The notes beneath the pieces are model-generated. The model was not told the DNA's origin, ran no database searches, and worked only from the letters and a program-made list of their open reading frames with translations. Made by a program: the position numbers and the translations under genes. Of a DNA stretch of 64,000 nt, positions 28,476 through 60,872 are shown piece by piece. The stretch spans positions 3,188 to 67,187 of the forward strand of contig DWZS01000035.1 in the NCBI GenBank assembly GCA_019117445.1, given 5' to 3'. How positions within the stretch are numbered: position 1 is the first letter of the stretch; every line of letters starts with the position of its first letter. Origin of the DNA: Candidatus Limosilactobacillus excrementigallinarum. GTDB taxonomy: Bacteria > Bacillota > Bacilli > Lactobacillales > Lactobacillaceae.

Positions 28476-28495
28476 TTGAGTTAATTGCATATCAA

Positions 28496-28575
28496 CTTAG
28501 AGCACAAAACACATCAAACTTAGTGCTGCTTCCTTCCGGATCTGACACGGTTCGTAAGCGCGTCCTTGCCCTAAG
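28496..28575 (-). ncRNA. ffs: Small (4.5S-type) signal recognition particle RNA
   Basis: Minus strand GTCAGATCCGGAAGGAAGCAGC matches the conserved SRP domain IV core (E. coli GGUCAGGUCCGGAAGGAAGCAGCC). The 5' CUUAGGGCA pairs with the 3' UGCUCUAAG. It sits between tadA and dnaX as Bacillus scr does. The ends are approximate to within about 10 nt. Confidence 0.85.
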
Positions 28576-28618
28576 GCCTTACGGCAATAAATATCATACA
28601 CTATTTCTTGGGTAAAAA

Positions 28619-43969: not shown

Positions 43970-45244
43970 CTACTTTAAAACCTTATATGCAGCGCCTAAG
44001 TTGATACTCGAATCTTTAGCAACCCGTGCTTTAAAATCGGCTAATTGTTGGGCAGTCATTTCATGAGTAATAATCACCACATGGGCTAAGCCATCCGCTT
44101 CTGTCTGCGTGATTTGACTAAAGCTGGCGTCAATTTCCGTCATAATTTGCGTTAACTTCAACATTTGCCCTGGCACATCTGGCATCATGATGGAAAGAAA
44201 GTATGGGTAAACGACGTCACGTGGTGCTGCAGGAATATACTGCCGTTGATAATTATTAAAGAAATTACCATTTGTTTTCAAAACTAGGTTTTTCGTGACC
44301 GAAATAATATCACTTAAAACACTATTGGCAGTTGGTAGGCCACCAGCCCCAGGACCATAGAAAAGGGTATCGCCCACAGCTTCCCCCGTTACCATGACCG
44401 CGTTATATTCGTTATTAATTGTTGCTAACGGGTGGTCCGCCGGTACTAAGGTTGGTGCAACTTCAACAAATACCCCATCATCAATTACCTGCGCGATCCC
44501 GACCAGTTTGATAACGTAACCGAATTTACCCGCTTGCTGCACATCAAAACCGTTTAAATGATCAATCCCCGTTACAGCAAAATCATCAACCGTTAATTGA
44601 GTACCAAAGGCAAATTGACTTAAAATGACCATCTTGTAAGCTGCATCCTTACCAGTAACATCATTAGTGGGATCCGCTTCAGCAAATCCCAACTGCTGGG
44701 CCGCTTTGAGTGCTTGGTCATACGACCAGCCTTGCTGACTCATTTGCGTAAGAATGTAGTTCGTGGTTCCATTCACGATCCCCTTAACCTCAGTAATTTT
44801 ATCCGCCGCAAAACTATTAGTAATCGTCCGCAGAATTGGAATTCCCCCAGCTACACTAGCTTCATACATCAAATCGCAATGATGGTCATGAGCGAGTTTC
44901 ACCAATTCTGGACCATAGGTTGCCAAAAGATCCTTATTCGCAGTGACCACATTTTTATGGTTACGCAGTGCCGCCTCAATGTATTCTTTAGCGGGATGGA
45001 TTCCACCAATCAGTTCCAATACAATTTGAATTTCATCATCATTAATGACGTCATCAACTGACGTCGTTAGTTCAATTTTTCCTGCAACATCTTGGTGCCG
45101 CTCTGGATGATTCACGAGGACCCGCTTCACATTTAATTTGCGTCCGGTGACATTTACCACCTTATCTTCATTATGCTGGATCATCTGTAACACACCAGAG
45201 CCGACCGTTCCTAGGCCAAACATCCCGATTTGAATGGTTTCCAT
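43970..45244 (-). CDS. hom: Homoserine dehydrogenase
   Basis: 424 aa: GLGTVGSG Rossmann fold, C-terminal ACT domain. Confidence 0.93.
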   Translation of the reverse strand: METIQIGMFGLGTVGSGVLQMIQHNEDKVVNVTGRKLNVKRVLVNHPERHQDVAGKIELTTSVDDVINDDEIQIVLELIGGIHPAKEYIEAALRNHKNVVTANKDLLATYGPELVKLAHDHHCDLMYEASVAGGIPILRTITNSFAADKITEVKGIVNGTTNYILTQMSQQGWSYDQALKAAQQLGFAEADPTNDVTGKDAAYKMVILSQFAFGTQLTVDDFAVTGIDHLNGFDVQQAGKFGYVIKLVGIAQVIDDGVFVEVAPTLVPADHPLATINNEYNAVMVTGEAVGDTLFYGPGAGGLPTANSVLSDIISVTKNLVLKTNGNFFNNYQRQYIPAAPRDVVYPYFLSIMMPDVPGQMLKLTQIMTEIDASFSQITQTEADGLAHVVIITHEMTAQQLADFKARVAKDSSINLGAAYKVLK

Positions 45245-45283
45245 CTTGCCACCTCATTTTCTCATTATTTTTTCATTTTTAGC

Positions 45284-45314
45284 ATTGTAACATACGTCCC
45301 TTCCAGGTTACAAT
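45284..45314. promoter_or_regulatory. Two-fold-symmetric overlapping divergent promoters (hom-thrB leftward, thrC rightward)
   Basis: ATTGTAAC-N15-GTTACAAT. On each strand this reads TTGTAA, 18 nt, TACAAT. Confidence 0.6.
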
Positions 45315-45356
45315 AACCAATAATCAATCACTAAATCTAGAAATGGAGGCTTTTTC

Positions 45357-46850
45357 ATGCAATACCGTAGTACCCGTGGCCAAATTACAGCAACATTAAA
45401 TTCGCCCCAAGCAGTCATCCAGGGGCTTGCTCCTGATGGTGGTCTTTTCGTCCCCGTCGATTTCCCCAAAGTCGACCTACCGCTGCAGAATTTAGCAACA
45501 ATGTCCTACCAAGCAATTGCGGAATTAGTATTAGGCTGGTTCTTTGATGACCTTAGTAAAAACCAGCTTCACCAAATTGTTCAAGGCGCCTATGGTTCCC
45601 AATGGGATGATGCAACTATCGCACCACTTTCAGAAAAGCACGCTGGTAACTACTATCTTGAATTATTTCATGGACCCACTCTAGCCTTTAAAGACATTGC
45701 GTTACAAGTCCTACCGCGTTTAATGCAAAAATCTTTAACCATTGAAAAAAACAGTAATGAAATTATCATCCTCACAGCAACCTCCGGTGATACTGGAACT
45801 GCTTCAATGCGTGGCTTTAGTGATCAAGATGGTACACGGGTGATTGTTTTCTACCCTCACGGTGGTGTTAGTCCTGTTCAGTTAAGCCAAATGTTAGGTC
45901 AGCGGGGAGATAACCTGACCGCCATCGCCATTGAAGGTAATTTTGATGATGCCCAAACTGCCGTTAAAACCATTTTTAATGATCAGAGCTTTAATGACCT
46001 ATTAATAGCCAATGGTTTTCAATTCTCATCTGCTAACTCGATGAACATTGGCCGGCTGATCCCCCAAATTGTCTATTACTTAAGTGCATATGGACAACTT
46101 GTGCGGCGTGGAGACATTCAACTAGGTGACCAAGTCAACTTTACAGTGCCAACAGGAAACTTTGGTGATATCCTCGCTGGCTATTATGCTAAAAAACTTG
46201 GATTACCAATTAATCGCCTCATTTGTGCATCCGACGAAAACAATGTTTTAACGGATTTCTTTAAAACCGGTCATTATGATCGAAAACGCCCATTTTTCCT
46301 GACCAATTCACCGGCCATGGATATTTTGGTCTCCAGTAACCTGGAACGACTGCTGTTTGATATTTACGATGAGAGTGCTCCTAGTATCAAGCAGTTAATG
46401 AAACAGTTAAATAACGATGGTAAATACTCAATTGATGATGGTGCCCGTGCTAAACTGCATGAACACTTTAATGCTGGTTTTGCCACTCAGCAAGAGGTTC
46501 TACAGGAAATCAAGCGCATCTATCAACAGGATGGCTACGTGATTGACCCTCACACCGCCGTGGCTTCTTTCGTTGCTAACCAATACTATGCCGCCAATAA
46601 CGATCCCACCCTAAATGTCATTATTTCAACCGCTAGTCCTTACAAATTTCCCGAAACAGTTTACCAAGCAATTACTGATAAGCAGAGTTCAGTCACGGGG
46701 TTAGATGCAATTACTGAACTACACAAGCTCCTTTTGCAACCATTAAGTCCAAACGTTCAGCAACTGTTTGATCAAAAGCAGCAGAGCGAACGAGTGATTC
46801 AGCCTGCCCAAATGAAATCAACTATTCGACAAATTCTGCAACTGCAATAA
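45357..46850 (+). CDS. thrC: Threonine synthase (long form)
   Basis: 497 aa: MQYRSTRG..., FKDIALQ PLP-lysine motif. Confidence 0.93.
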   Translation: MQYRSTRGQITATLNSPQAVIQGLAPDGGLFVPVDFPKVDLPLQNLATMSYQAIAELVLGWFFDDLSKNQLHQIVQGAYGSQWDDATIAPLSEKHAGNYYLELFHGPTLAFKDIALQVLPRLMQKSLTIEKNSNEIIILTATSGDTGTASMRGFSDQDGTRVIVFYPHGGVSPVQLSQMLGQRGDNLTAIAIEGNFDDAQTAVKTIFNDQSFNDLLIANGFQFSSANSMNIGRLIPQIVYYLSAYGQLVRRGDIQLGDQVNFTVPTGNFGDILAGYYAKKLGLPINRLICASDENNVLTDFFKTGHYDRKRPFFLTNSPAMDILVSSNLERLLFDIYDESAPSIKQLMKQLNNDGKYSIDDGARAKLHEHFNAGFATQQEVLQEIKRIYQQDGYVIDPHTAVASFVANQYYAANNDPTLNVIISTASPYKFPETVYQAITDKQSSVTGLDAITELHKLLLQPLSPNVQQLFDQKQQSERVIQPAQMKSTIRQILQLQ

Positions 46851-46955: not shown

Positions 46956-47321
46956 CTACTTAAGGGTAACAGTAGCACCAGCGTCTTCAAGCTTAGCCTT
47001 GATGTCGTTGGCTTCGTCTTCCTTAGCGTCTTCCTTGATAACAGATGGTGCGTTATCAACAAGGTCCTTAGCATCCTTAAGGCCAGAACCAGTGATGTCC
47101 TTAACAGCCTTAATAACCTTAACCTTAGCAGTACCTGGTTCAGTTAATTCAACAGTGAAGCTATCCTTAGCAGCACCGTCGCCACCAGCAGCACCTGCAA
47201 CTGCAACTGGAGCAGCAGCTGAAACGTCAAATTCGTCTTCGATTGCCTTAACAAGGTCGTTAAGGTCAGAGATTGATGCTTCCTTTAATGAAGCAATAAT
47301 AGCATCCTTATCAAAAGCCAT
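46956..47321 (-). CDS. rplL: 50S ribosomal protein L7/L12
   Basis: 121 aa with the typical Ala-rich hinge and C-terminal domain. Confidence 0.97.
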
Positions 47322-47387
47322 TTTTAAATTCCTCCAATGATTAAATCTTGTTTAATTGATAGTTTAAATGTAACTGTAAGCACACAA

Positions 47388-47888
47388 TTATGCGGCTTCG
47401 TCGGCCTTGTCGGCAACGGCCTTGACGGCCCGTGCGATCTTCCGCATTGGGTCTTGCAATGCAGATGCAAGCATGGAAAGAAGATCGTCCCGACTTGGCA
47501 GTTCAGCGAATTCATTGATTTCATCAAGCGTCTTGATGTCTTTTTCAATGAAACCACCCTTAATTTCAAGAGCATCGTGGTCCTCTGCAAACTTCTTCAT
47601 AATCTTTGCAGGAGCAATTGGATCTTCATTTGAAAAGGCAACTGCAGTTGGGCCAACAAACACACTCTTTAAGTCTTCGTAATCAGTACCGTCAACGGCC
47701 CGTTCCAAGATCTTGTTCTTGATAACAACCATCTTGACACCAGCATCACGAAGTTGCTTACGCAAATCAGTGACTTCATCAACCGTCAAACCACGGTAGT
47801 CAACAACGATAGCTGATTCAGCATCAGTCAACAAACCATTGGCAACTTTAACGGCTTCAGCCTTTTTAGCAATAGCTGCTTCACTCAT
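47388..47888 (-). CDS. rplJ: 50S ribosomal protein L10
   Basis: 166 aa. Confidence 0.96.
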
Positions 47889-48040
47889 GAAATTACACCT
47901 CCTATATTAAATTTGGTACGGATTTAAAAAAATCCCTATGACCGGCAGACATAGAGAAGGAACATTTCATTTCTTCCTCGGCAGGTATGATTGAGGCTTG
48001 CGCCACCTGAGTCTTAGGCAGAGTCATATTTATAACCACT
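47889..48040 (-). promoter_or_regulatory. rplJL 5' leader (L10-leader-type autoregulatory RNA, position-based call)
   Basis: Structured 5' UTR of about 150 nt between the promoter at 48046-48074 and the rplJ RBS. It was not aligned to a covariance model. Confidence 0.45.
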
Positions 48041-48045
48041 AAAAC

Positions 48046-48074
48046 AGTATACATAACTCAAGTTCATTTTGCAA
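48046..48074 (-). promoter_or_regulatory. rplJL promoter
   Basis: Minus strand reads TTGCAA, 17 nt, TATACT. Confidence 0.6.
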
Positions 48075-48099
48075 GGCGTCATTAAAAATAAAAAAATGC

Positions 48100-48128
48100 T
48101 TGCGTTAGATTTTTTCTAATGGTATTCT
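48100..48128 (+). promoter_or_regulatory. Promoter of the steT-like leader
   Basis: TTGCGT, 17 nt (the last nt form TGg), TATTCT, an extended -10. Confidence 0.55.
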
Positions 48129-48159
48129 AATGTCAATCAAAATTTTGGAGGAGACGCAA

Positions 48160-48234
48160 ATGTTACAACTGAATTTGACTCATTTTAATTTATCCTCTTC
48201 CTCAACCTCATCATCTCTGATTGTGGTTGGGTAA
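48160..48234 (+). CDS. Putative 24-aa leader peptide MLQLNLTHFNLSSSSTSSSLIVVG
   Basis: Strong RBS GGAGGAG 6 nt before the ATG. There are eight consecutive Ser/Thr codons (48193-48216), and the 3' end of the ORF is complementary to the terminator's left arm. The ORF is too short for the ORF track. Confidence 0.55.
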   Translation: MLQLNLTHFNLSSSSTSSSLIVVG

Positions 48235-48270
48235 TTTTGGTGTTCATTATTTTATAATAACAATTAATGG

Positions 48271-48322
48271 GCCGTCTCAACCACTTGCAGTTTTGCGAAT
48301 GGTGCTTGAGGCGGCTTTTATT
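48271..48322 (+). terminator. Leader (attenuator) terminator upstream of the steT-like gene
   Basis: GCCGTCTCAA(48271-80)...TTGAGGCGGC(48306-15) forms 10 bp with one G.U. An inner helix CCACTTGC/GCGAATGG extends it, and TTTTATTGTG follows. Confidence 0.7.
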
Positions 48323-48348
48323 GTGTCATAGAAATGGAGGAATTAGTT

Positions 48349-49680
48349 ATGCAGGATAAACAACCAACTGAAGACTTGAAGCGTTCGCTCGGCTTTGGCT
48401 CAGCAATTTCAATCGTGATTGGAACTATCATTGGATCAGGAATCTTCTTTAAACAAGGCTCGGTTTTAGATAGTGCCGGCAGTTCCACAATGGCTATTCT
48501 GGCTTGGGTCTTTGGTGGGGTTATTACCCTGACCGGTGGTCTTACCGTTGCCGAAATTGGTGCTCAGATGCCATATACTGGTGGTCTTTACGTATATATT
48601 GAGAACATTTATGGTCGGATTCTTGGCTTTTTGGCCGGGTGGATGCAAATTATTGTCTACGGTCCAGCGATCATTGCCTCGGTAGCAGGGTTTATGAGTA
48701 TCCTCATGGCCAATTTCTTTGGATTAGGTAATGAATGGCGAATTCCATTAGCGATTATTACTGTTGGCCTCATTGGATTAATGAACCTGTTGGAAAACAA
48801 GGTTGGTGCTCTATTCTCCGTCATCACCACTTTAGGAAAATTAATCCCGATTGCCGCAATTATCATTTTTGGCCTCTTCTGGGGACACCAAGATGCCTTT
48901 GGACAAACTGTTCGTGAAATTCAGCAAAGTTCCGGTGGTTTTGGTGTCGCTGTGCTCGCCACCCTCTTCGGGTACGACGGCTGGATCCTGATTGCCAACC
49001 TTGGTGGCGAAATGAAGAATCCGCAAAAATTACTTCCGAAGGCGATCATTTTCGGAATCACTGCTGTTTTGATTATCTACACTTTAATTACCGTAGGAAT
49101 TCTCCGTTTTCTTCCCGTTGCGACAATTCATCGCCTTGGTGAAAATACTACTGCCTATCTAGCAACCAAGGCCTTTGGACAGATTGGTGGTAAACTGCTG
49201 TCAGCCGGAATCATCATCTCGATGATGGGAACGTTAAACGGTAAAATGTTAACTTTCCCCCGCATTGTGTATGCCATGGCTAAACGACAAGACATCCCAT
49301 TTTCGAAATTCTTAGCCTACCTCAGTCCGAAGGGTAAATCGCCAGTTACGGCTACTATTTTTATTGTCGTCCTAGCCTTCATTATGATGCTCTTCTTTGA
49401 TCCAGATCACCTATCGGATCTCTGTGTATTTACGGTTTACTGCTTCTACATGTTGGCTTTCTTTGGGGTCTTTATTCTACGGAAACGTAATAAGTTTGCA
49501 AAGCGGCCTTTCTCGACTCCTCTCTATCCATTTGTCCCGATCATTGCAATTGCCGGTGGAATCTTTGTCCTCGTCAGTGAAATCTTCAATGACCCGGCGG
49601 GTGTTATTCTCTTCATCGGGATTGTGATTGTAGGGTTACCAATTCTTTACTTTGTTAAAAAGTATTACCAAAAAGGGTAA
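48349..49680 (+). CDS. steT: APC/LAT-family amino acid transporter, SteT-like serine/threonine exchanger
   Basis: Start refined to the ATG at 48349 (GGAGG 8 nt upstream). The sequence closely parallels B. subtilis SteT/YkbA along its length (IGTIIGSGIF, GGLTVAEIG, YGPAII, GGEMKNPQKLLP). This is a recalled comparison, not an alignment. Confidence 0.75.
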   Translation: MQDKQPTEDLKRSLGFGSAISIVIGTIIGSGIFFKQGSVLDSAGSSTMAILAWVFGGVITLTGGLTVAEIGAQMPYTGGLYVYIENIYGRILGFLAGWMQIIVYGPAIIASVAGFMSILMANFFGLGNEWRIPLAIITVGLIGLMNLLENKVGALFSVITTLGKLIPIAAIIIFGLFWGHQDAFGQTVREIQQSSGGFGVAVLATLFGYDGWILIANLGGEMKNPQKLLPKAIIFGITAVLIIYTLITVGILRFLPVATIHRLGENTTAYLATKAFGQIGGKLLSAGIIISMMGTLNGKMLTFPRIVYAMAKRQDIPFSKFLAYLSPKGKSPVTATIFIVVLAFIMMLFFDPDHLSDLCVFTVYCFYMLAFFGVFILRKRNKFAKRPFSTPLYPFVPIIAIAGGIFVLVSEIFNDPAGVILFIGIVIVGLPILYFVKKYYQKG

Positions 49681-49708
49681 ATCACCATATTGATAATATC
49701 TAAATCAC

Positions 49709-49760
49709 ACGGGTGCGTGATCACGAAGTCATAAATGTCTTCTGCCACGCACCCGTTTTT
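49709..49760 (+). terminator. steT terminator
   Basis: ACGGGTGCGTG...CACGCACCCGT (11 bp) followed by TTTT. Confidence 0.75.
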
Positions 49761-49817
49761 GGTTATCAAGTTGTTGTACAATTAGATTATCTAAGTTTGA
49801 GTGAGGTTAAAGTACCG

Positions 49818-50768
49818 ATGAAGAAAAATGGATTACTATTAGTAAATCTTGGTTCACCAGATGAACCGACAACTCCTGCAGTTAAGCAATACTTAACCGA
49901 ATTTTTAGGTGATCAAAACGTTGTTACCCTGCCCCGGTGGTTTTGGCAACCATTACTAAAGGGAATTATCCTGCCGACCCGTGCTTGGCGGTCAGCCACA
50001 TTTTATCGTGATATTTGGGAACGGGATGGCTCACCCCTAATTGCTAATACTGCACGACTTACCAAACGGGTTCAGGATGCTCTACCCGATTGGCAAGTCG
50101 CCATGGCGATGACATATCGCAAACCGGCAATTTCAACGGTATTACATCAGCTCCAACAAACCTGTGATCAAGTTTATGTATTCTCACTGTTTCCGCATTT
50201 CACCCAAAGCACTACCCAATCCATCATTGACCAAGTCCACGCCGTTGATCCGACGATTCCAATCATTGACCGTTTTGCTGATCAACCTGCCTTTTTGGAT
50301 CTCTTAGCGAAACATATTCAGGCTTTTTGGGATGATGGTAACTTCGATCAATTAATGATTTCCTACCACGGGATTCCTGTATCAATGGTTAAAGCTGGTG
50401 ACCCTTATCAATCTGAAACCGAACGAACAACCGTTGAATTAAAAAAGCGACTAGCCATTCCCGACCAGCAAATCAAAATGGTTTATCAATCAAAGTTCGG
50501 CCCCATGCCTTGGTTAAAACCGTACCTTAAAAATGAATTGCTTCGCCAAGCTCAACTGGGTAAGCGACGCATCATGATTGCTTCACCCTCATTTGTTACA
50601 GATTGTCTTGAAACACTAGAAGAAAACAGCGTTCAAAATTACCAGGCCTTTCGGGCTAATGGCGGTCAAGAACTCGCCATGATGCCAGCCCTGAATGATA
50701 ATCCAGAGTTTGCTGCTTTGATCGCCAATCTAGCCAAGGAGGCCGCTAATGAACAAGAAAAGTCTTGA
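49818..50768 (+). CDS. hemH: Ferrochelatase / coproporphyrin ferrochelatase
   Basis: Start refined to the ATG at 49818 (MKKNGLLLVNLGSPDEPT...). About 316 aa with the SYHGIP and FVTDCLETLEE motifs. Confidence 0.88.
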   Translation: MKKNGLLLVNLGSPDEPTTPAVKQYLTEFLGDQNVVTLPRWFWQPLLKGIILPTRAWRSATFYRDIWERDGSPLIANTARLTKRVQDALPDWQVAMAMTYRKPAISTVLHQLQQTCDQVYVFSLFPHFTQSTTQSIIDQVHAVDPTIPIIDRFADQPAFLDLLAKHIQAFWDDGNFDQLMISYHGIPVSMVKAGDPYQSETERTTVELKKRLAIPDQQIKMVYQSKFGPMPWLKPYLKNELLRQAQLGKRRIMIASPSFVTDCLETLEENSVQNYQAFRANGGQELAMMPALNDNPEFAALIANLAKEAANEQEKS

Positions 50769-52053
50769 TGAAATTAATGGTAGTGTTAAAGTACCGACAG
50801 TCTATGAATCTGCCTTCTGGCAAAAATTTCTCGCTTACTGTGGCCCCGGTGCTCTAGTAGCAGTTGGTTATATGGATCCTGGTAATTGGCTAACTTCTTT
50901 AGCGGGCGGTGCTCAATATCGTTACTCACTATTAAGTGTTCTAATCTTCTCCATCTTGGTCGCAATGATAATGCAATCTCTATCCATTAAGTTAGGGGTG
51001 GTTACTCGAACAGATCTTGCGCAAGCCATTGCTGCTCGGGTTTCAAAACCTGTTCGCATTGTTTTATGGCTCTTAAACGAACTGGCCATGATGGCCACCG
51101 ATCTAACTGGGGTCATCGGCACCTCCGTGGCTCTTTATTTATTATTTCATCTTCCCCTTATTGTTGGCGTATTACTAACGGTCGCGGACGTCATCGTCGT
51201 TTTACTCTTCTTGCAATTTGGTATTCGCAGAATTGAATTCATTGTGTTAGCAACAATCCTAACTGTTGCAGGAATCTTTACTATTGAAGTCGTCCGTGCT
51301 CATCCAGAATGGTCGCCGATTTTAAATGGTTGTATCCCCGCCACTAATATTATTAACAATCACGCTCAGTTGTTACTAAGTTTGGGAATCATTGGTGCCA
51401 CAATCATGCCACATAATATCTATCTTCACTCCGCGCTTGCCCAAAGCCGCCGTTATGATGAACATGATCCCCGCCAAGTTCACGAAACTTTGCAATTTGC
51501 CAATTGGGACTCCATTATTCACTTAGTAGCCGCTCTGCTCGTCAATGCCCTGTTAATGATTATGGGTGGAACCTTATTTTTCCATCATGGAACCCTCAAT
51601 AGTTTGGCAGACATCTTTTATGGATTAAATAATTCCAAGATTGTTGGCTCATTAGCTAGTCCCGTCATGAGCGGTCTTTTTGGTTTTGCCCTCTTGATTA
51701 CTGGATTAATTTCTTCAATTACCAGTACCTTGGCGGGGCAAATCGTCATGGAAGGTTATATTAACCTTCATTTACCCCTTTGGAAGCGACGCTTGCTGAC
51801 TCGTTTAGTGACCCTGATTCCAGTGATTATCATTGGCTGTTGTATTCACTTTAATGAACAGGAATTTGAACAGTTAATTATTTTCGCCCAAATTATTTTA
51901 AGTGTTGCCTTACCTTTTACCCTTTTTCCCCTCATTATCATTACAAGTAACCACCAGATCATGGGGCAATATGCCAATCATCATTGGCAAATGATTAGTT
52001 ACTTAATCATCGTCATTGCGTTAACCTTTCTCAACTTGGTCGCGTTTTTATAG
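50749..52053 (+). CDS. mntH: Nramp-family divalent metal (Mn2+/Fe2+):H+ symporter
   Basis: 434 aa: GPGALVAVGYMDPGNW, MPHNIYLHSAL. AAGGAGG lies 6 nt upstream. The gene overlaps hemH by 20 nt. Confidence 0.92.
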   Translation: MNKKSLDEINGSVKVPTVYESAFWQKFLAYCGPGALVAVGYMDPGNWLTSLAGGAQYRYSLLSVLIFSILVAMIMQSLSIKLGVVTRTDLAQAIAARVSKPVRIVLWLLNELAMMATDLTGVIGTSVALYLLFHLPLIVGVLLTVADVIVVLLFLQFGIRRIEFIVLATILTVAGIFTIEVVRAHPEWSPILNGCIPATNIINNHAQLLLSLGIIGATIMPHNIYLHSALAQSRRYDEHDPRQVHETLQFANWDSIIHLVAALLVNALLMIMGGTLFFHHGTLNSLADIFYGLNNSKIVGSLASPVMSGLFGFALLITGLISSITSTLAGQIVMEGYINLHLPLWKRRLLTRLVTLIPVIIIGCCIHFNEQEFEQLIIFAQIILSVALPFTLFPLIIITSNHQIMGQYANHHWQMISYLIIVIALTFLNLVAFL

Positions 52054-52056
52054 TAT

Positions 52057-52100
52057 AAAAAAAGCATCAGAACTGTTAATTAACAATTCTGATGCTTTTA
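52057..52100. terminator. Bidirectional terminator (mntH / rplA)
   Basis: AAAAAAAGCATCAGAA-loop-TTCTGATGCTTTTAT. Confidence 0.85.
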
Positions 52101-52117
52101 TAATTTAGCCCACTGAA

Positions 52118-52810
52118 CTAGAAAGTTGTCAAATCAAGCGTAACGCTTGGTCCGAAAGTTGAAGCAATGGAAACGTGTTGAACGTAAGTCCCACGAACAG
52201 AAGCTGGACGTGCCTTCACAACAACATCTTCAATCGTCTTCAAGTTTTCTACTAACTTATCAGTATCAAATGATGCCTTACCAAATGGTACGGCAACGTT
52301 ACCGTCACGGTCAGTCCGGTAAGTAACCTTACCAGCCTTTGATTCTTCAACGGCCTTTGCAACATCCATCGTTACAGTACCAGTCTTAGGGTTTGGCATT
52401 AAGCCCTTTGGCCCTAAGACCCGACCTAGACGACCAACTTGTGGCATCATGTCTGGAGTTGCGATTGCAACGTCAAAGTCTAACCAACCGTCTTGGATCT
52501 TTTCTACTAAGTCTTGGTCACCAACAAAATCAGCACCAGCATCCTTAGCAGCTTGCGCGTTGTCACCCTTAGCAAAGACAATTACAGTTTGGTCTTTACC
52601 AGTACCGTTTGGTAAAACAACGGCACCACGTAATTGTTGGTCTGCTTGCTTAGTGTCAACGTTTAACTTAAATGCAACTTCAACAGTTGAATCAAAGTTT
52701 GCAAAATCAATATCTTTTACTAATTGAACCGCGTCGTTAACAGCGTATTCTTTCTTGCTGTCAACCTTCTTCAGCGCTTCAAGGTATTTCTTACCATGTT
52801 TTTTAGCCAT
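52118..52810 (-). CDS. rplA: 50S ribosomal protein L1
   Basis: Start refined to [12 protein letters not shown] (ATG at 52810, AAGGAGG upstream). Confidence 0.96.
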
Positions 52811-52902
52811 CTTGTGTTTTCCTCCTTGCAAATGTGGTCTAACGGGTTGACCTCCCACGTAGGAACTTTTATTTTGATAAAAGTCCCGGCGCTGTACGTC
52901 GC

Positions 52903-53328
52903 TTAGTCTTCAACAGTGAAGCCCATGCTCCGTGCAGTACCTTCGATCATGCGCATAGCTGCTTCAACGTCAGCAGCGTTTAGATCTTGCATCTTAGTTT
53001 CGGCAATTTCCTTAACTTGATCCTTGGTTACCTTAGCAACCTTCTTCGTGTTAGGTTCACCGGAACCATGTTCAACACCAGCGGCTTTCTTAAGTAATAC
53101 GGCAGCAGGTGGGGTCTTGGTAATGAAGTCGAATGAACGATCTTCGTAAACGGTAATTACAACTGGGATCAGCATACCCTTTTGGTCTGCAGTCCGTGCG
53201 TTGAATTCCTTAGTGAATCCCATAATGTTGATACCTGCTTGTCCAAGTGCAGGACCTACTGGTGGAGCTGGTGTTGCTGCACCGGCAGGAATTTGCAACT
53301 TAACAATGTTAGCTACTTTTTTTGCCAC
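52903..53328 (-). CDS. rplK: 50S ribosomal protein L11
   Basis: 141 aa, GTG start. Sequence (M)[29 protein letters not shown]. Confidence 0.96.
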
Positions 53329-53454
53329 GAGACAAAACCTCCTTAGTCCGTGTTGTGGTAATGATGAGGCAGTAAGTTTTTACCTCTCCCACAGTATGCA
53401 TACTGCATACCAAAATAAATTACCACAAAATTACATAAAATTCAAGTTATAGAA

Positions 53455-54003
53455 TTAATTATCCATCGTATCAATTTGGTCAAAACCAACTTCGGCACTA
53501 GTTTGCCGACCGAACATTTCAATATCCACGTTGACCTTCATCTTGTCATGATCAACCGCCGTTACTTTTCCGGTCAAATCAGCAAATGGCCCAGCAATAA
53601 TCTTGATGCTGTCGCCAACATTAACGTCAATGTCCGTTCGTGCGACATCCGCTCCCATTCGCTTCATGATCCGATCCACTTCTTCTGGAAGCAATGGGGT
53701 TGGCTTGGAACCACCACCATGGGAACCTAAGAATCCGGTAACGCCAGGTGTATTCCGTGCAATGTACCAAGCTTGATCAGTCATCACCATTTCAACTAGA
53801 ACATAACCTGGAAACGTCTTTTCTTCCGTTTCCTTCGCTTGGCCATCCTTAACTGTCCGCACCGTTTCTTCAGGAACCACTACCCGGAAAATGTAGTCTT
53901 CCATGCCCATTGATTGAGCCCGGGACTCCAGGTTGCTCTTAACCCGATTTTCGTATCCAGAATAGGTGTGCAGTACATACCAGCGTTTTTCATGTGATTC
54001 CAT
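53455..54003 (-). CDS. nusG: Transcription termination/antitermination protein NusG
   Basis: 182 aa: KRWYVLHTYSGYENRV, KOW domain. Confidence 0.96.
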   Translation of the reverse strand: MESHEKRWYVLHTYSGYENRVKSNLESRAQSMGMEDYIFRVVVPEETVRTVKDGQAKETEEKTFPGYVLVEMVMTDQAWYIARNTPGVTGFLGSHGGGSKPTPLLPEEVDRIMKRMGADVARTDIDVNVGDSIKIIAGPFADLTGKVTAVDHDKMKVNVDIEMFGRQTSAEVGFDQIDTMDN

Positions 54004-59498: not shown

Positions 59499-60872
59499 TT
59501 ATGCTAATGCTAATTGCAGCGTCTGACTAATGGTAGTTACCCCAACCACTTCAATGTTCTGCGGTGGCGTCCAGTTTTGCAAGTTATTTTTCGGGATAAA
59601 GATCCGCTTGAAACCTAACTTAGCTGCTTCGGCCACCCGTTGCTCGATCCGGTTGACCCGCCGAATTTCACCCGTTAGACCAACTTCACCCACAAACGCA
59701 TCCGTGGGCTTCGTGCCTTTATCACGGTAGGAAGAAGCAATTGCCACCGCGATTGCTAGATCAATTGCGGGTTCATCTAATTTCACACCACCAGCCGCTT
59801 TTAGATAGGCATCCTGATTTTGTAATAACAAATTAGCCCGCTTCTCTAAAACCGCCATAATTAATGAGACCCGATTACGACTTAACCCGGTTGCAGTCCG
59901 CTGCGCATTTCCAAATACGGACGGGGTGATTAAAGCTTGAATTTCAACTAAAATCGGGCGAGTCCCTTCCAGTGAAACCACTACTGCAGAACCCGTAGCA
60001 TCTTTGAGTCGCTCCTCCAAAAAGATTTCGGAAGGGTTCGCAACTTCTTTCAACCCCGTCCCGTTCATTTCAAAAATGCCTAACTCATTGGTTGAGCCAA
60101 ATCGATTTTTGACTGACCGTAGGATCCGGTAGGTGTGGTGAAGGTCCCCTTCAAAGTAGAGAACCGTATCCACCATGTGCTCCAAAATCTTGGGGCCGGC
60201 TAACACCCCACCTTTAGTGACGTGGCCCACCACAAACACGGTAATATTCTTGCCCTTGGCAATCTGCATTAGTTGGGCCGTCACTGCCCGAATTTGAGCA
60301 ACACTCCCGATTGCTGATGTGACATCGGTCGCTTGCATCGTCTGCACGGAGTCGATGACTACGTATTCCGGATTCATCTCATCAATGGTGGCCCGAATAC
60401 TATCCATGTTCGTTTCCGGATAGATATAAAAATCGTCACCAGACACGTCTAAACGTTGCGCCCGCATCTTAATTTGGTTAGCGCTCTCTTCACCAGAAAC
60501 GTACAGAACCGAGTGTCCTTCTTGGCTTAATTGCCCGGATACTTGCAACAACAGGGTCGATTTTCCGATTCCTGGATCACCACCAATTAACACTAACGAT
60601 CCCGGAACAATCCCACCACCGAGCACCCGGTTCAACTCATGGAGCTGCGTTTTGACCCGAGGTGTTTTTTGGGTATCGATTTCATTAATTCGTTGGGGTT
60701 TGGCAACAATCCCCGTTAGTGTCGTAGTCGTAGTTTTCGGCTGCTTAATTGTCGACTGATCCACTTCTTCGACTAGCGTATTCCATTGTCCACAGTTTGG
60801 GCACCGGCCTAAGAACCGTGGTGAAATGTAGCCACAATTTTGGCAAACAAAGTGTGTCTTGGATTTTGCCAT
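59499..60872 (-). CDS. radA: DNA repair protein RadA
   Basis: 457 aa: C4 zinc finger, GDPGIGKST Walker A, KNRFG, Lon-like C-terminus. Confidence 0.96.

Follow-up and report, generated by a model that had tools for sequence, protein, structure and literature searches.

A candidate serine-sensing leader-peptide attenuator ahead of an amino-acid exchanger gene in Lactobacillaceae

Why should a short open reading frame (ORF) with eight serine and threonine codons in a row stand between the promoter of an amino-acid exchanger gene and an intrinsic terminator? The question is raised by a 64,000-nt stretch of DNA from Candidatus Limosilactobacillus excrementigallinarum (GenBank assembly GCA_019117445.1, contig DWZS01000035.1, positions 3,188 to 67,187 of the forward strand), here called the window, whose numbering we use throughout. 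A sequence-only reading of this DNA had described a trp-style attenuator responding to serine and threonine upstream of a SteT-like permease gene. Based on the parts present in the leader and on their comparison among related loci, we propose that the locus is likely to be a ribosome-mediated attenuator that senses the charging of tRNA-Ser and controls a single gene for a BasC/SteT-type exchanger of small neutral amino acids. Judging from the codon runs, the regulatory amino acid is serine.

Parts of the leader and the gene that it precedes

The components of a ribosome-mediated attenuator were all found computationally (Table 1): a Shine-Dalgarno (SD) sequence with an ORF, tandem regulatory codons, an intrinsic terminator, an antiterminator formed by regions 2 and 3 (2:3), an anti-antiterminator formed by regions 1 and 2 (1:2) that overlaps the codons, and a suitably placed stop codon. 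The promoter, the ribosome-binding site with its 24-codon ORF, the eight consecutive UCN or ACC codons and the four pairing regions lie where the sequence-only reading had placed them, save for small corrections to the coordinates, the permease ATG being at 48349 and not 48350. The −35 and −10 elements can be read directly, and at almost every orthologous locus the form TTGCaa-17-TGnTATTCTAAT precedes the leader ORF; a strict consensus promoter scan does not report the promoter in the window. Conservation at 48113-48131 extends beyond the −10 box to TTCTAATGRTATTCTAAT, a direct repeat of TTCTAAT found at the same position in loci L002-L070 and kept from Limosilactobacillus to Lactobacillus, which could reflect the binding site of an additional regulator or a constraint on the start site or discriminator. 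The leader frame is open in the ORF list back to an in-frame ATG at 48130, which was rejected as the start codon; it lies just 3' of the −10 box and is not preceded by an SD. It is also at or upstream of the transcription start, which we infer to be near 48135, and therefore the leader ORF starts at 48160.

Of all ORFs of 8-45 codons that follow an SD, on either strand of the window, the leader ORF is the sole intergenic case with six of seven identical residues. One further ORF in the window has such a stretch, a Val run at 60652-60759 that is far from any leader position, and no other run-type leader ORF in the window was convincing. The leader peptides have no match in NCBIfam and no exact entry among ~15 billion predicted proteins. 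The leader ORF is unannotated in the sources checked, so that genome annotation currently misses it.

The minimum free energy (MFE) fold of 48135-48330 consists of the 1:2 hairpin and the terminator (−55.3 kcal/mol, z = −4.06, with 0 of 200 shuffles as good), in agreement with the 1:2 and 3:4 pairings proposed earlier. The terminator hairpin, in which regions 3 and 4 are paired, reaches −26.9 kcal/mol by itself (z = −4.4). Counterparts at −19 to −38 kcal/mol, each with a U tract behind it, stand between mini-ORF and permease gene in all 56 distinct leaders of the comparison described below, and their stem sequences vary widely; for locus L056 the automatic pick was a minor downstream hairpin, and the printed fold has the strong hairpin and U tract. 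A simple terminator scan missed the hairpin at 48269-48317 because its loop and stem exceed the limits of that scan. In every leader the terminator lies 20-30 nt upstream of the permease SD and does not overlap it.

The gene that follows appears to encode a BasC/SteT-type exchanger within the subfamily of L-type amino acid transporters (LAT). Its product matches Pfam AA_permease_2 (2.9e-57), its best NCBIfam model is TIGR00911 (L-type amino acid transporter; 2.9e-55, below the cutoff of that model), and its closest solved relative is BasC of Carnobacterium sp. AT7 (PDB 6f2g), which aligns end to end (18-440 vs 8-431; E = 4e-88), with the eukaryotic LATs of SLC7 next. The earlier description of the permease as SteT-like holds at the level of the LAT subfamily; BasC is the closest characterised relative among those compared. 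BasC exchanges Gly, Ala, Ser, Thr and Cys, with a Km of ~45 µM for external L-Ser, and SteT of B. subtilis, the subfamily's Ser/Thr exchanger, transports Ser as BasC does (PMC6445583). Taken together, the relationship with BasC and the Ser codons of the leader suggest that the permease would exchange Ser (or Ser/Thr, or Ala/Ser/Cys). In public sources the Lactobacillaceae protein has no name more specific than 'APC family permease' or 'amino acid permease', so that the leader and its gene together offer a sequence-based prediction of function, serine uptake, for a permease that databases describe only by family. The gene has its own terminator, and therefore the regulated unit is monocistronic.

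Table 1. Coordinates of the leader elements and of the permease gene in the window.
Feature	Position	Strand	Description	Basis
Promoter	48100-48128	+	−35 TTGCGT 48100-48105; 17-nt spacer; extended −10 TGgTATTCT 48120-48128	read from sequence
Region 0	48136-48144	+	5' untranslated region (5'UTR) arm AUCAAAAUU; pairs with the tail after the stop, AAUUUUGGU 48233-48241	MFE fold
SD of leader ORF	48147-48153	+	GGAGGAG, 6 nt before ATG	
Leader ORF	48160-48234	+	24 codons and UAA (48232-48234); MLQLNLTHFNLSSSSTSSSLIVVG	sequence and ORF list
Regulatory codon run	48193-48216	+	codons 12-19, UCC UCU UCC UCA ACC UCA UCA UCU (7 Ser and 1 Thr)	sequence
Region 1	48200-48207	+	CCUCAACC, with CUCAACC at 48201-48207; 5' arm of 1:2 hairpin, within the Ser run	MFE fold
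Region 2	48223-48241	+	2a GUGGUUGGG 48223-48231; stop UAA; 2b tail to 48241 (AAUUUUGGU, overlaps the stop)	
Intrinsic terminator	48269-48322	+	hairpin 48269-48317, holds regions 3 and 4; then UUUUAUU	
Region 3	48276-48284	+	CUCAACCAC; terminator 5' arm	
Region 4	48306-48315	+	UUGAGGCGGC; then UUUUAUUGUG	
Permease gene	48336-49680	+	SD GGAGGA 48336-48341; ATG 48349; 443 amino acids; predicted LAT-type APC amino-acid exchanger	
Permease terminator	49709-49760	+	−29 kcal/mol, z = −6.8, then UUUUU	

Selection on the serine frame

For the comparison, one genome per species was scanned, giving 79 loci with relatives of the permease (58-99% identity); with L. coleohominis the window shares 99% identity. 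A Ser-run mini-ORF with an SD lies ~115-200 nt upstream of the orthologous permease gene in 56 distinct leaders, counted over the window and these loci. Further leaders were found at loci L042 and L074 with a lower threshold and in L. acidophilus (MHTEYFYFLESSFSSSCSHLLE), so the prediction that related upstream regions would keep both the mini-ORF and the Ser run was borne out. Typical leader peptides are MLFFNNQNQQFSSSSASNSIKAE (reuteri), MKYLHRTNLNTSSSSSSTSSGT (johnsonii) and MFYLNANVASTSSSSSSSR (helveticus). An SD-like motif stands 4-11 nt ahead of the start codon in 56 of 56 leaders; this motif was a selection criterion, yet every locus bearing a Ser ORF has it.

The frame of the leader ORF is under selection. 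The distance from the ATG to the CUCA of region 1 takes five values (32, 38, 41, 44 and 50 nt), all of them 2 mod 3 in 50 of 50 distinct orthologous ORFs, and therefore insertions and deletions come in threes. The other two frames are interrupted by stop codons in 40 and 53 of the 56 leaders, and the Ser frame alone is open. Both UCN and AGY serine codons are used within 31 of the 56 leaders, and thus the identity of the residue is kept despite changes in the RNA. Outside the Ser run the peptide is not conserved, nor is the sequence of the 30-40 nt that separate the run from the AUG. At the end of the ORF, the RNA motif GGCUGAGUGA is read in frames that differ by clade, as GCU GAG UGA in reuteri and GGC UGA in the vaginalis type. 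Given that serine survives changes in the RNA and that this motif shifts frame, two layers of constraint are visible in the leader, one on the translated Ser run and one on the structure of the RNA.

The runs of 50 leaders (~400 residues) contain 311 Ser, 39 Thr, 25 Ala, 10 Asn and 5 Val. Their Ser codons are 35% UCC, 32% UCU, 24% UCA and 9% AGY, with no UCG. The permease genes next to them have 8% UCC, 10% UCU, 27% UCG and 20% AGU; relative to these genes, the runs are enriched in UCC and UCU and depleted in UCG and AGU. Part of this bias is imposed by the pairing of CCUCA. Attenuators are known to be biased in their regulatory codons toward the isoacceptor most sensitive to starvation (PMC1183508), and the UCN codons are those sensitive to serine starvation in B. 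subtilis (PMC3862929). The bias in the leaders is in line with both patterns.

The sequence-only reading had the leader sense serine and threonine together, matching a Ser/Thr exchanger. Its serine half is supported, and we consider joint sensing with threonine unlikely. There is one ACC codon in the window run, Thr supplies 39 of the ~400 run residues with four to five Thr codons in each of loci L054 and L060, and both BasC and SteT accept Thr (PMC6445583, PMC2494555). However, most leaders have no Thr in the run, and a single codon gives little leverage for stalling. The window ACC, moreover, occupies the position of helix 1:2 right after CCUCA, where other clades have GCC, GUC, AUC, AGU or UCU together with a matching region-2 partner. 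Because this position co-varies with its partner, the single ACC is, on this comparison, structural. Real Thr runs occur in two leaders only, those of L054 and L060, where the run is TSSSTTT(T)S and ACA and ACC supply the 4-5 Thr codons; unlike the window leader, this pair may sense Thr besides Ser. The two loci are from L. secaliphilus and a related metagenome-assembled genome.

Could the leader depend on translation without sensing an amino acid at all? The leader-ORF attenuators studied in Firmicutes are often antibiotic sensors (PMC9226507, PMC6851288), and leaders of the erm, vmlR or bmrB type, which would register antibiotics or translation stress as general stalling, have an identical architecture of ORF, terminator and antiterminator. 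We regard this as very unlikely here. The Ser run is the only conserved feature of the peptide, there is no conserved arrest motif, and the N-terminal part varies freely; the identity of serine survives UCN/AGY switches; and the target is an amino-acid exchanger rather than a resistance gene.

Alternative pairings and the proposed switch

Region 2 has alternative partners, either regions 1 and 0 or region 3. A hairpin of CUCAnnn with nnnUGAG is common to all 43 distinct segments that run from the Ser codons to the tail. In an alignment anchored on the predicted pairs, 87% of the cells of helix 1:2 are paired, compared with 30-45% when the partner is slid, and six of ten pairs vary on both sides (AU/GC/UA, CG/GC/UA, CG/UA). 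For covariation the helix scores 0.36 vs 0.16, and none of 500 shuffles reaches 0.36. An unbiased alignment of 19 whole leaders (MAFFT, then RNAalifold) gives the same seven 1:2 pairs, three of them compensatory. The anti-antiterminator proposed earlier is thus found in the fold, in the compensatory changes and in the consensus structure. The UAA adjoins region 2a in the window, and in 50 orthologues the stop codon lies between −10 and +9 nt from the UGAG anchor of region 2.

The competing antiterminator, GUGGUUGGG:CUCAACCAC, comprises 9 bp in the window (48223-31 with 48276-84). Clades that differ in region 2 have a matching region 3: GUGGUUG/CAACCAC, AAAGCAGU/ACUGCUUU, AACUGGUU/AACCAGUU, UGAGUAG/CUACUCA and UGAGUGAUU/AAUCACUCA. 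The specificity of the pairing was assessed on 12 clade representatives, because a core shared by most clades (GAGUGAUU/AAUCAY) made an all-against-all control uninformative; their own pairs average −14.8 kcal/mol vs −11.6 kcal/mol for crossed pairs, and 41 of 20000 permutations are as good. Region 2 thus co-varies with the terminator arm between clades.

The switch itself was simulated with hard fold constraints, taking region 2 as the end of the ORF, the stop codon and ~8 nt beyond. Without constraint, the leader RNA folds into 1:2 and the terminator. When the ~29 nt about the third Ser codon are masked and the transcript ends at the terminator loop, the 5' arm of the terminator becomes the partner of region 2 in 52 of the 56 leaders (in the reuteri example, GCUGAGUGAUU:AAUCAUUUGGC), and with the ribosome set on the stop codon instead this helix is lost. 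The contrast between a ribosome stalled in the run and one that reaches the stop, on which the sequence-only reading depended, is therefore reproduced in these folds: 2:3 forms with the Ser run masked and does not form with the stop codon masked.

A further helix, overlooked in that reading, links region 0, the part of the 5'UTR immediately before the leader SD, with the tail that follows the stop codon (0:2b) and encloses the whole leader ORF. Equivalents with other sequences occur in most clades (GUACAC/GUGUAC, ACACACA/UGUGUGU, AUACCA/UGGUAU, ACAGGAAA/UUUCUUGU, GCAUAC/GUAUGC), so that this helix also co-varies. It would act as a second clamp on region 2 in RNA that is untranslated or has already been translated.

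Three helices that are conserved or co-varying (0:2b, 1:2 and the pairing of the SD with CCUCC described below) might instead form the sensor of a structured RNA switch for a ligand, tRNA or protein, whose stabilisation favours termination and in which the ORF is incidental; the motif CUGAGUGAUUUUGGUGU is indeed conserved whatever the reading frame. This is very unlikely indeed, given a strict frame in 50 of 50 ORFs across five length classes, a single open frame always accompanied by an SD and start codon, serine kept through UCN-to-AGY changes that alter the RNA, and a stretch of 30-40 nt between the AUG and the run that is not conserved in sequence. Nor does any Rfam family match, the T-box included.

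The leader SD of the window is predicted to pair with 48194-48201, the CCUCC-rich first Ser codons (CCUCUUCC, resembling an anti-SD), and the equivalent pairing appears in the MFE folds of 34 of the 56 leaders. We speculate that this pairing may limit re-initiation and confine translation to the first ribosome. In the MFE folds of 37 of the 56 leaders, some or all of the permease SD is paired. These pairings, the complementarity of the CCUCC-rich run to GGAGG and the proposal that leader ORFs boost downstream translation (PMC4833913) could be taken to mean that the leader acts mainly after transcription, on translation or stability of the permease mRNA by CCUCC:permease-SD pairing or re-initiation; this is the least likely of the alternatives, since the SD pairing arises trivially from the composition of the Ser codons, every leader has a canonical terminator clear of the permease SD, and the arm of this terminator co-varies with region 2.

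In the attenuation model, transcription would begin near 48135, and a ribosome would load at the GGAGGAG/AUG (48147/48160) and translate the 24-codon leader. Ribosome and polymerase might be synchronised by a polymerase pause, for which the conserved U-rich UGAUUUUGGUGU that directly follows the 1:2 hairpin is a candidate site. When seryl-tRNA is plentiful, the ribosome would reach the UAA (48232) and cover region 2, so that region 3 pairs with region 4 and polymerase stops at ~48319-48322, releasing an RNA of ~185 nt. Without translation, region 2 would be locked by regions 1 and 0, and the terminator would form again. When seryl-tRNA is scarce, the ribosome would stall early in the Ser run (48193-48205), masking region 1 and leaving region 2 naked. 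From the first codon of the Ser run to region 2a there are 30 nt, which keeps region 2a out of reach of a ribosome whose A site is on codons 12-14. Free region 2 would then pair with the emerging region 3, leaving region 4 without a partner, and polymerase would read into the permease gene, giving more serine uptake.

Several points weigh against this model: (i) The transcription start, the premature 3' end or read-through, the pause, the response to serine and the permease substrate are all deduced. (ii) In B. subtilis, and possibly in other Firmicutes, RNA polymerase outruns ribosomes in 'runaway transcription' (PMC7858274, PMC13323073), and therefore the leader mechanism would need a pause. 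(iii) An obligate exchanger alone gives no net gain of amino acids. (iv) In the full-length RNA with region 1 masked, the terminator is still thermodynamically favoured (MFE); thus the antiterminator must win kinetically, as in classical attenuators. (v) The all-against-all 2:3 control with 49 leaders gave no discrimination. (vi) The anchors of the 1:2 alignment are themselves the predicted pairs, which biases it toward pairing, a bias that RNAalifold on the unbiased alignment mitigates. (vii) CCUCC in the run complements the SD, and part of the Ser-codon bias may be structural rather than a matter of tRNA charging.

With little more than even confidence, we lean towards a broader reading, in which this is the first serine-sensing leader-peptide attenuator, an independently evolved family unrelated to the trp, his, leu and thr leaders, forming a fixed cassette with a BasC/SteT-type exchanger that has apparently moved between Lactobacillus and Limosilactobacillus, reading the UCC/UCU/UCA subset of serine codons and held in its default state by the 5'UTR clamp. 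If so, serine would join the short list of amino acids sensed by leader-peptide attenuation, and the mechanism would govern uptake rather than biosynthesis. It would also require synchrony of ribosome and polymerase in a lineage of Firmicutes in which 'runaway transcription' is believed to work against this very mechanism, making the leader a natural and compact test case for ribosome-polymerase coupling in Firmicutes. The ~190-nt leader, which is present in gut and probiotic species that are in wide use (L. reuteri, L. johnsonii, L. acidophilus, L. helveticus, L. jensenii), is in addition a candidate serine-responsive engineering part for lactobacilli.

Known systems, distribution and genomic setting

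The identity of the leader as a T-box or another known RNA family was rejected by Rfam scans. The whole window gave no match on the leader at the gathering threshold, and a cmscan search of 48030-48400 at E <= 10 returned only unrelated families at chance level. Scans of 32 related loci likewise matched no Rfam family to the leader. T-box RF00230 is thus missing from the leaders of the window, as the sequence-only reading had supposed, and of these loci, although T-boxes at other positions in L059, L071 and L072 were picked up by those scans. The covariance models Thr_leader, Leu_leader, His_leader, Trp_leader and Leu/phe_leader (RF01743, the Lactococcus Leu/Phe leader) likewise gave no match at E <= 10. 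No published description of a serine leader peptide was found in full-text searches of the openly accessible literature.

Compared with the enteric attenuators (trpL, hisL, leuL, thrL, pheL, ilvL), the leader is alike in having a short translated ORF with tandem regulatory codons in segment 1, the alternatives 1:2, 2:3 and 3:4, a stop codon that lets the terminating ribosome mask segment 2, an intrinsic terminator before the structural gene and termination as the untranslated default. It differs in having no similarity to them in sequence or covariance model, in serine as the regulatory amino acid, in a target that is a single transporter gene and not a biosynthetic operon, in its Lactobacillaceae host and in the extra helix between 5'UTR and tail. 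A 2013 survey of attenuator specificities lists His, Leu, Thr and Trp as well as Ile/Val and Phe, mostly for biosynthetic operons and mostly in Proteobacteria (PMC3766115). To judge from such comparisons, the mechanism would be classical, and the serine specificity, transporter target, host group and extra clamp helix appear to be new.

An attenuator of this kind had been thought unusual for a lactobacillus. Leader-peptide attenuators are indeed rare in Firmicutes, but not unknown: a His leader stands upstream of hisS/hisZ paralogues in bacilli (PMC2965389), the ilv-leu operon of S. aureus has a Leu-rich attenuator peptide (PMC5794164), and yfmH-yfmG of B. subtilis has a leader-peptide attenuator, YfmH, composed of a mixture of 13 residues (PMC7491331). 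The present leader resembles these, and the Lactococcus Leu/Phe leader, in belonging to Gram-positive hosts dominated by T-boxes and in having a translated ORF that overlaps anti-antiterminator and antiterminator structures ahead of a terminator; the amino acids (Leu, His, the YfmH mixture) and targets differ, and there is no sequence relationship. Orthologues of steT (ykbA) in the B. cereus group have a Thr T-box upstream (PMC2494555). There, and in the model proposed for the present leader, the charging of a tRNA governs an exchanger of this one protein subfamily by way of a choice between terminator and antiterminator; the proposed sensor here, in contrast, is a translating ribosome rather than the binding of uncharged tRNA, and the leader lacks Stem I, a specifier loop and the T-box sequence.

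Among relatives, the leader is present in most Limosilactobacillus (the coleohominis, reuteri, vaginalis-type, panis, frumenti, mucosae, secaliphilus and equigenerosi groups) and in many Lactobacillus (johnsonii, helveticus, jensenii, mulieris, psittaci, kalixensis, corticis). Over the two genera, 58 distinct leaders share the layout. Neither a leader nor a T-box was found before the permease homologues of L. fermentum, L. gorillae, L. gastricus, the L. pontis group, Ligilactobacillus, Paucilactobacillus and Loigolactobacillus, and the homologues without a leader have short 5' regions. In the L. pontis group (L044-L048, L051, L052 and L078; 74-77% identical), a shared and conserved AT-rich block, cctaatctaattttaatcttttcttaattaaa...tacaatag, lies ~40-110 nt upstream of the permease start; it may be a promoter and operator for a different control. 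A loose DNA pattern scan of metagenomes gave 120 matches, mostly by chance; 19 had the ORF architecture, 18 of which were followed by the same permease 90-125 nt downstream, and the scan returned no second target gene for the Ser leader.

Leader and permease stay together in different genomic contexts: several Limosilactobacillus have them between ribosomal-protein operons, whereas L. johnsonii has them between two tRNA-Thr genes. Because of this, and because permease identity between Lactobacillus and Limosilactobacillus is 75-82%, the comparison suggests that the leader-permease cassette moves as a unit. In L. johnsonii L066 (2590-2663, 4397-4470), and likewise in L070, the two flanking tRNA-Thr(AGU) genes have identical Rfam scores and lie on the strand opposite to the cassette, which suggests insertion or duplication at a tRNA locus. 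Threonine, the amino acid of these flanking tRNAs, is one that the exchanger family carries.

In the window, the leader sits in a divergent intergenic region opposite minus-strand rplJ and rplL, which have an L10 leader (RF00557) at 47918-48036. The permease gene is followed by a ferrochelatase-like gene and mntH, and then by minus-strand rplA, rplK and nusG. Within 46956-54003, the plus-strand permease, ferrochelatase-like and mntH genes are thus wedged between the minus-strand clusters rplJ-rplL and nusG-rplK-rplA, which are adjacent in most bacteria. The permease of L. fermentum (L082) occupies the same wedge without a Ser leader. The mechanical ORF of the ferrochelatase-like gene begins at GTG 49713; this start, which would make the gene an operon with the permease, was rejected, the stretch being the permease terminator. 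The family match sets in only at residue 36, which puts the probable true start near 49818. Just beyond rplL, at 43970-46850, the threonine-pathway genes hom (minus strand) and thrC (plus strand) are divergent, and no leader ORF or Rfam element was seen in the ~110 nt between them. Elsewhere in the window, at 28483-28582 on the minus strand, there is a small signal recognition particle RNA (RF00169, 52.4 bits) that is unrelated to the leader.

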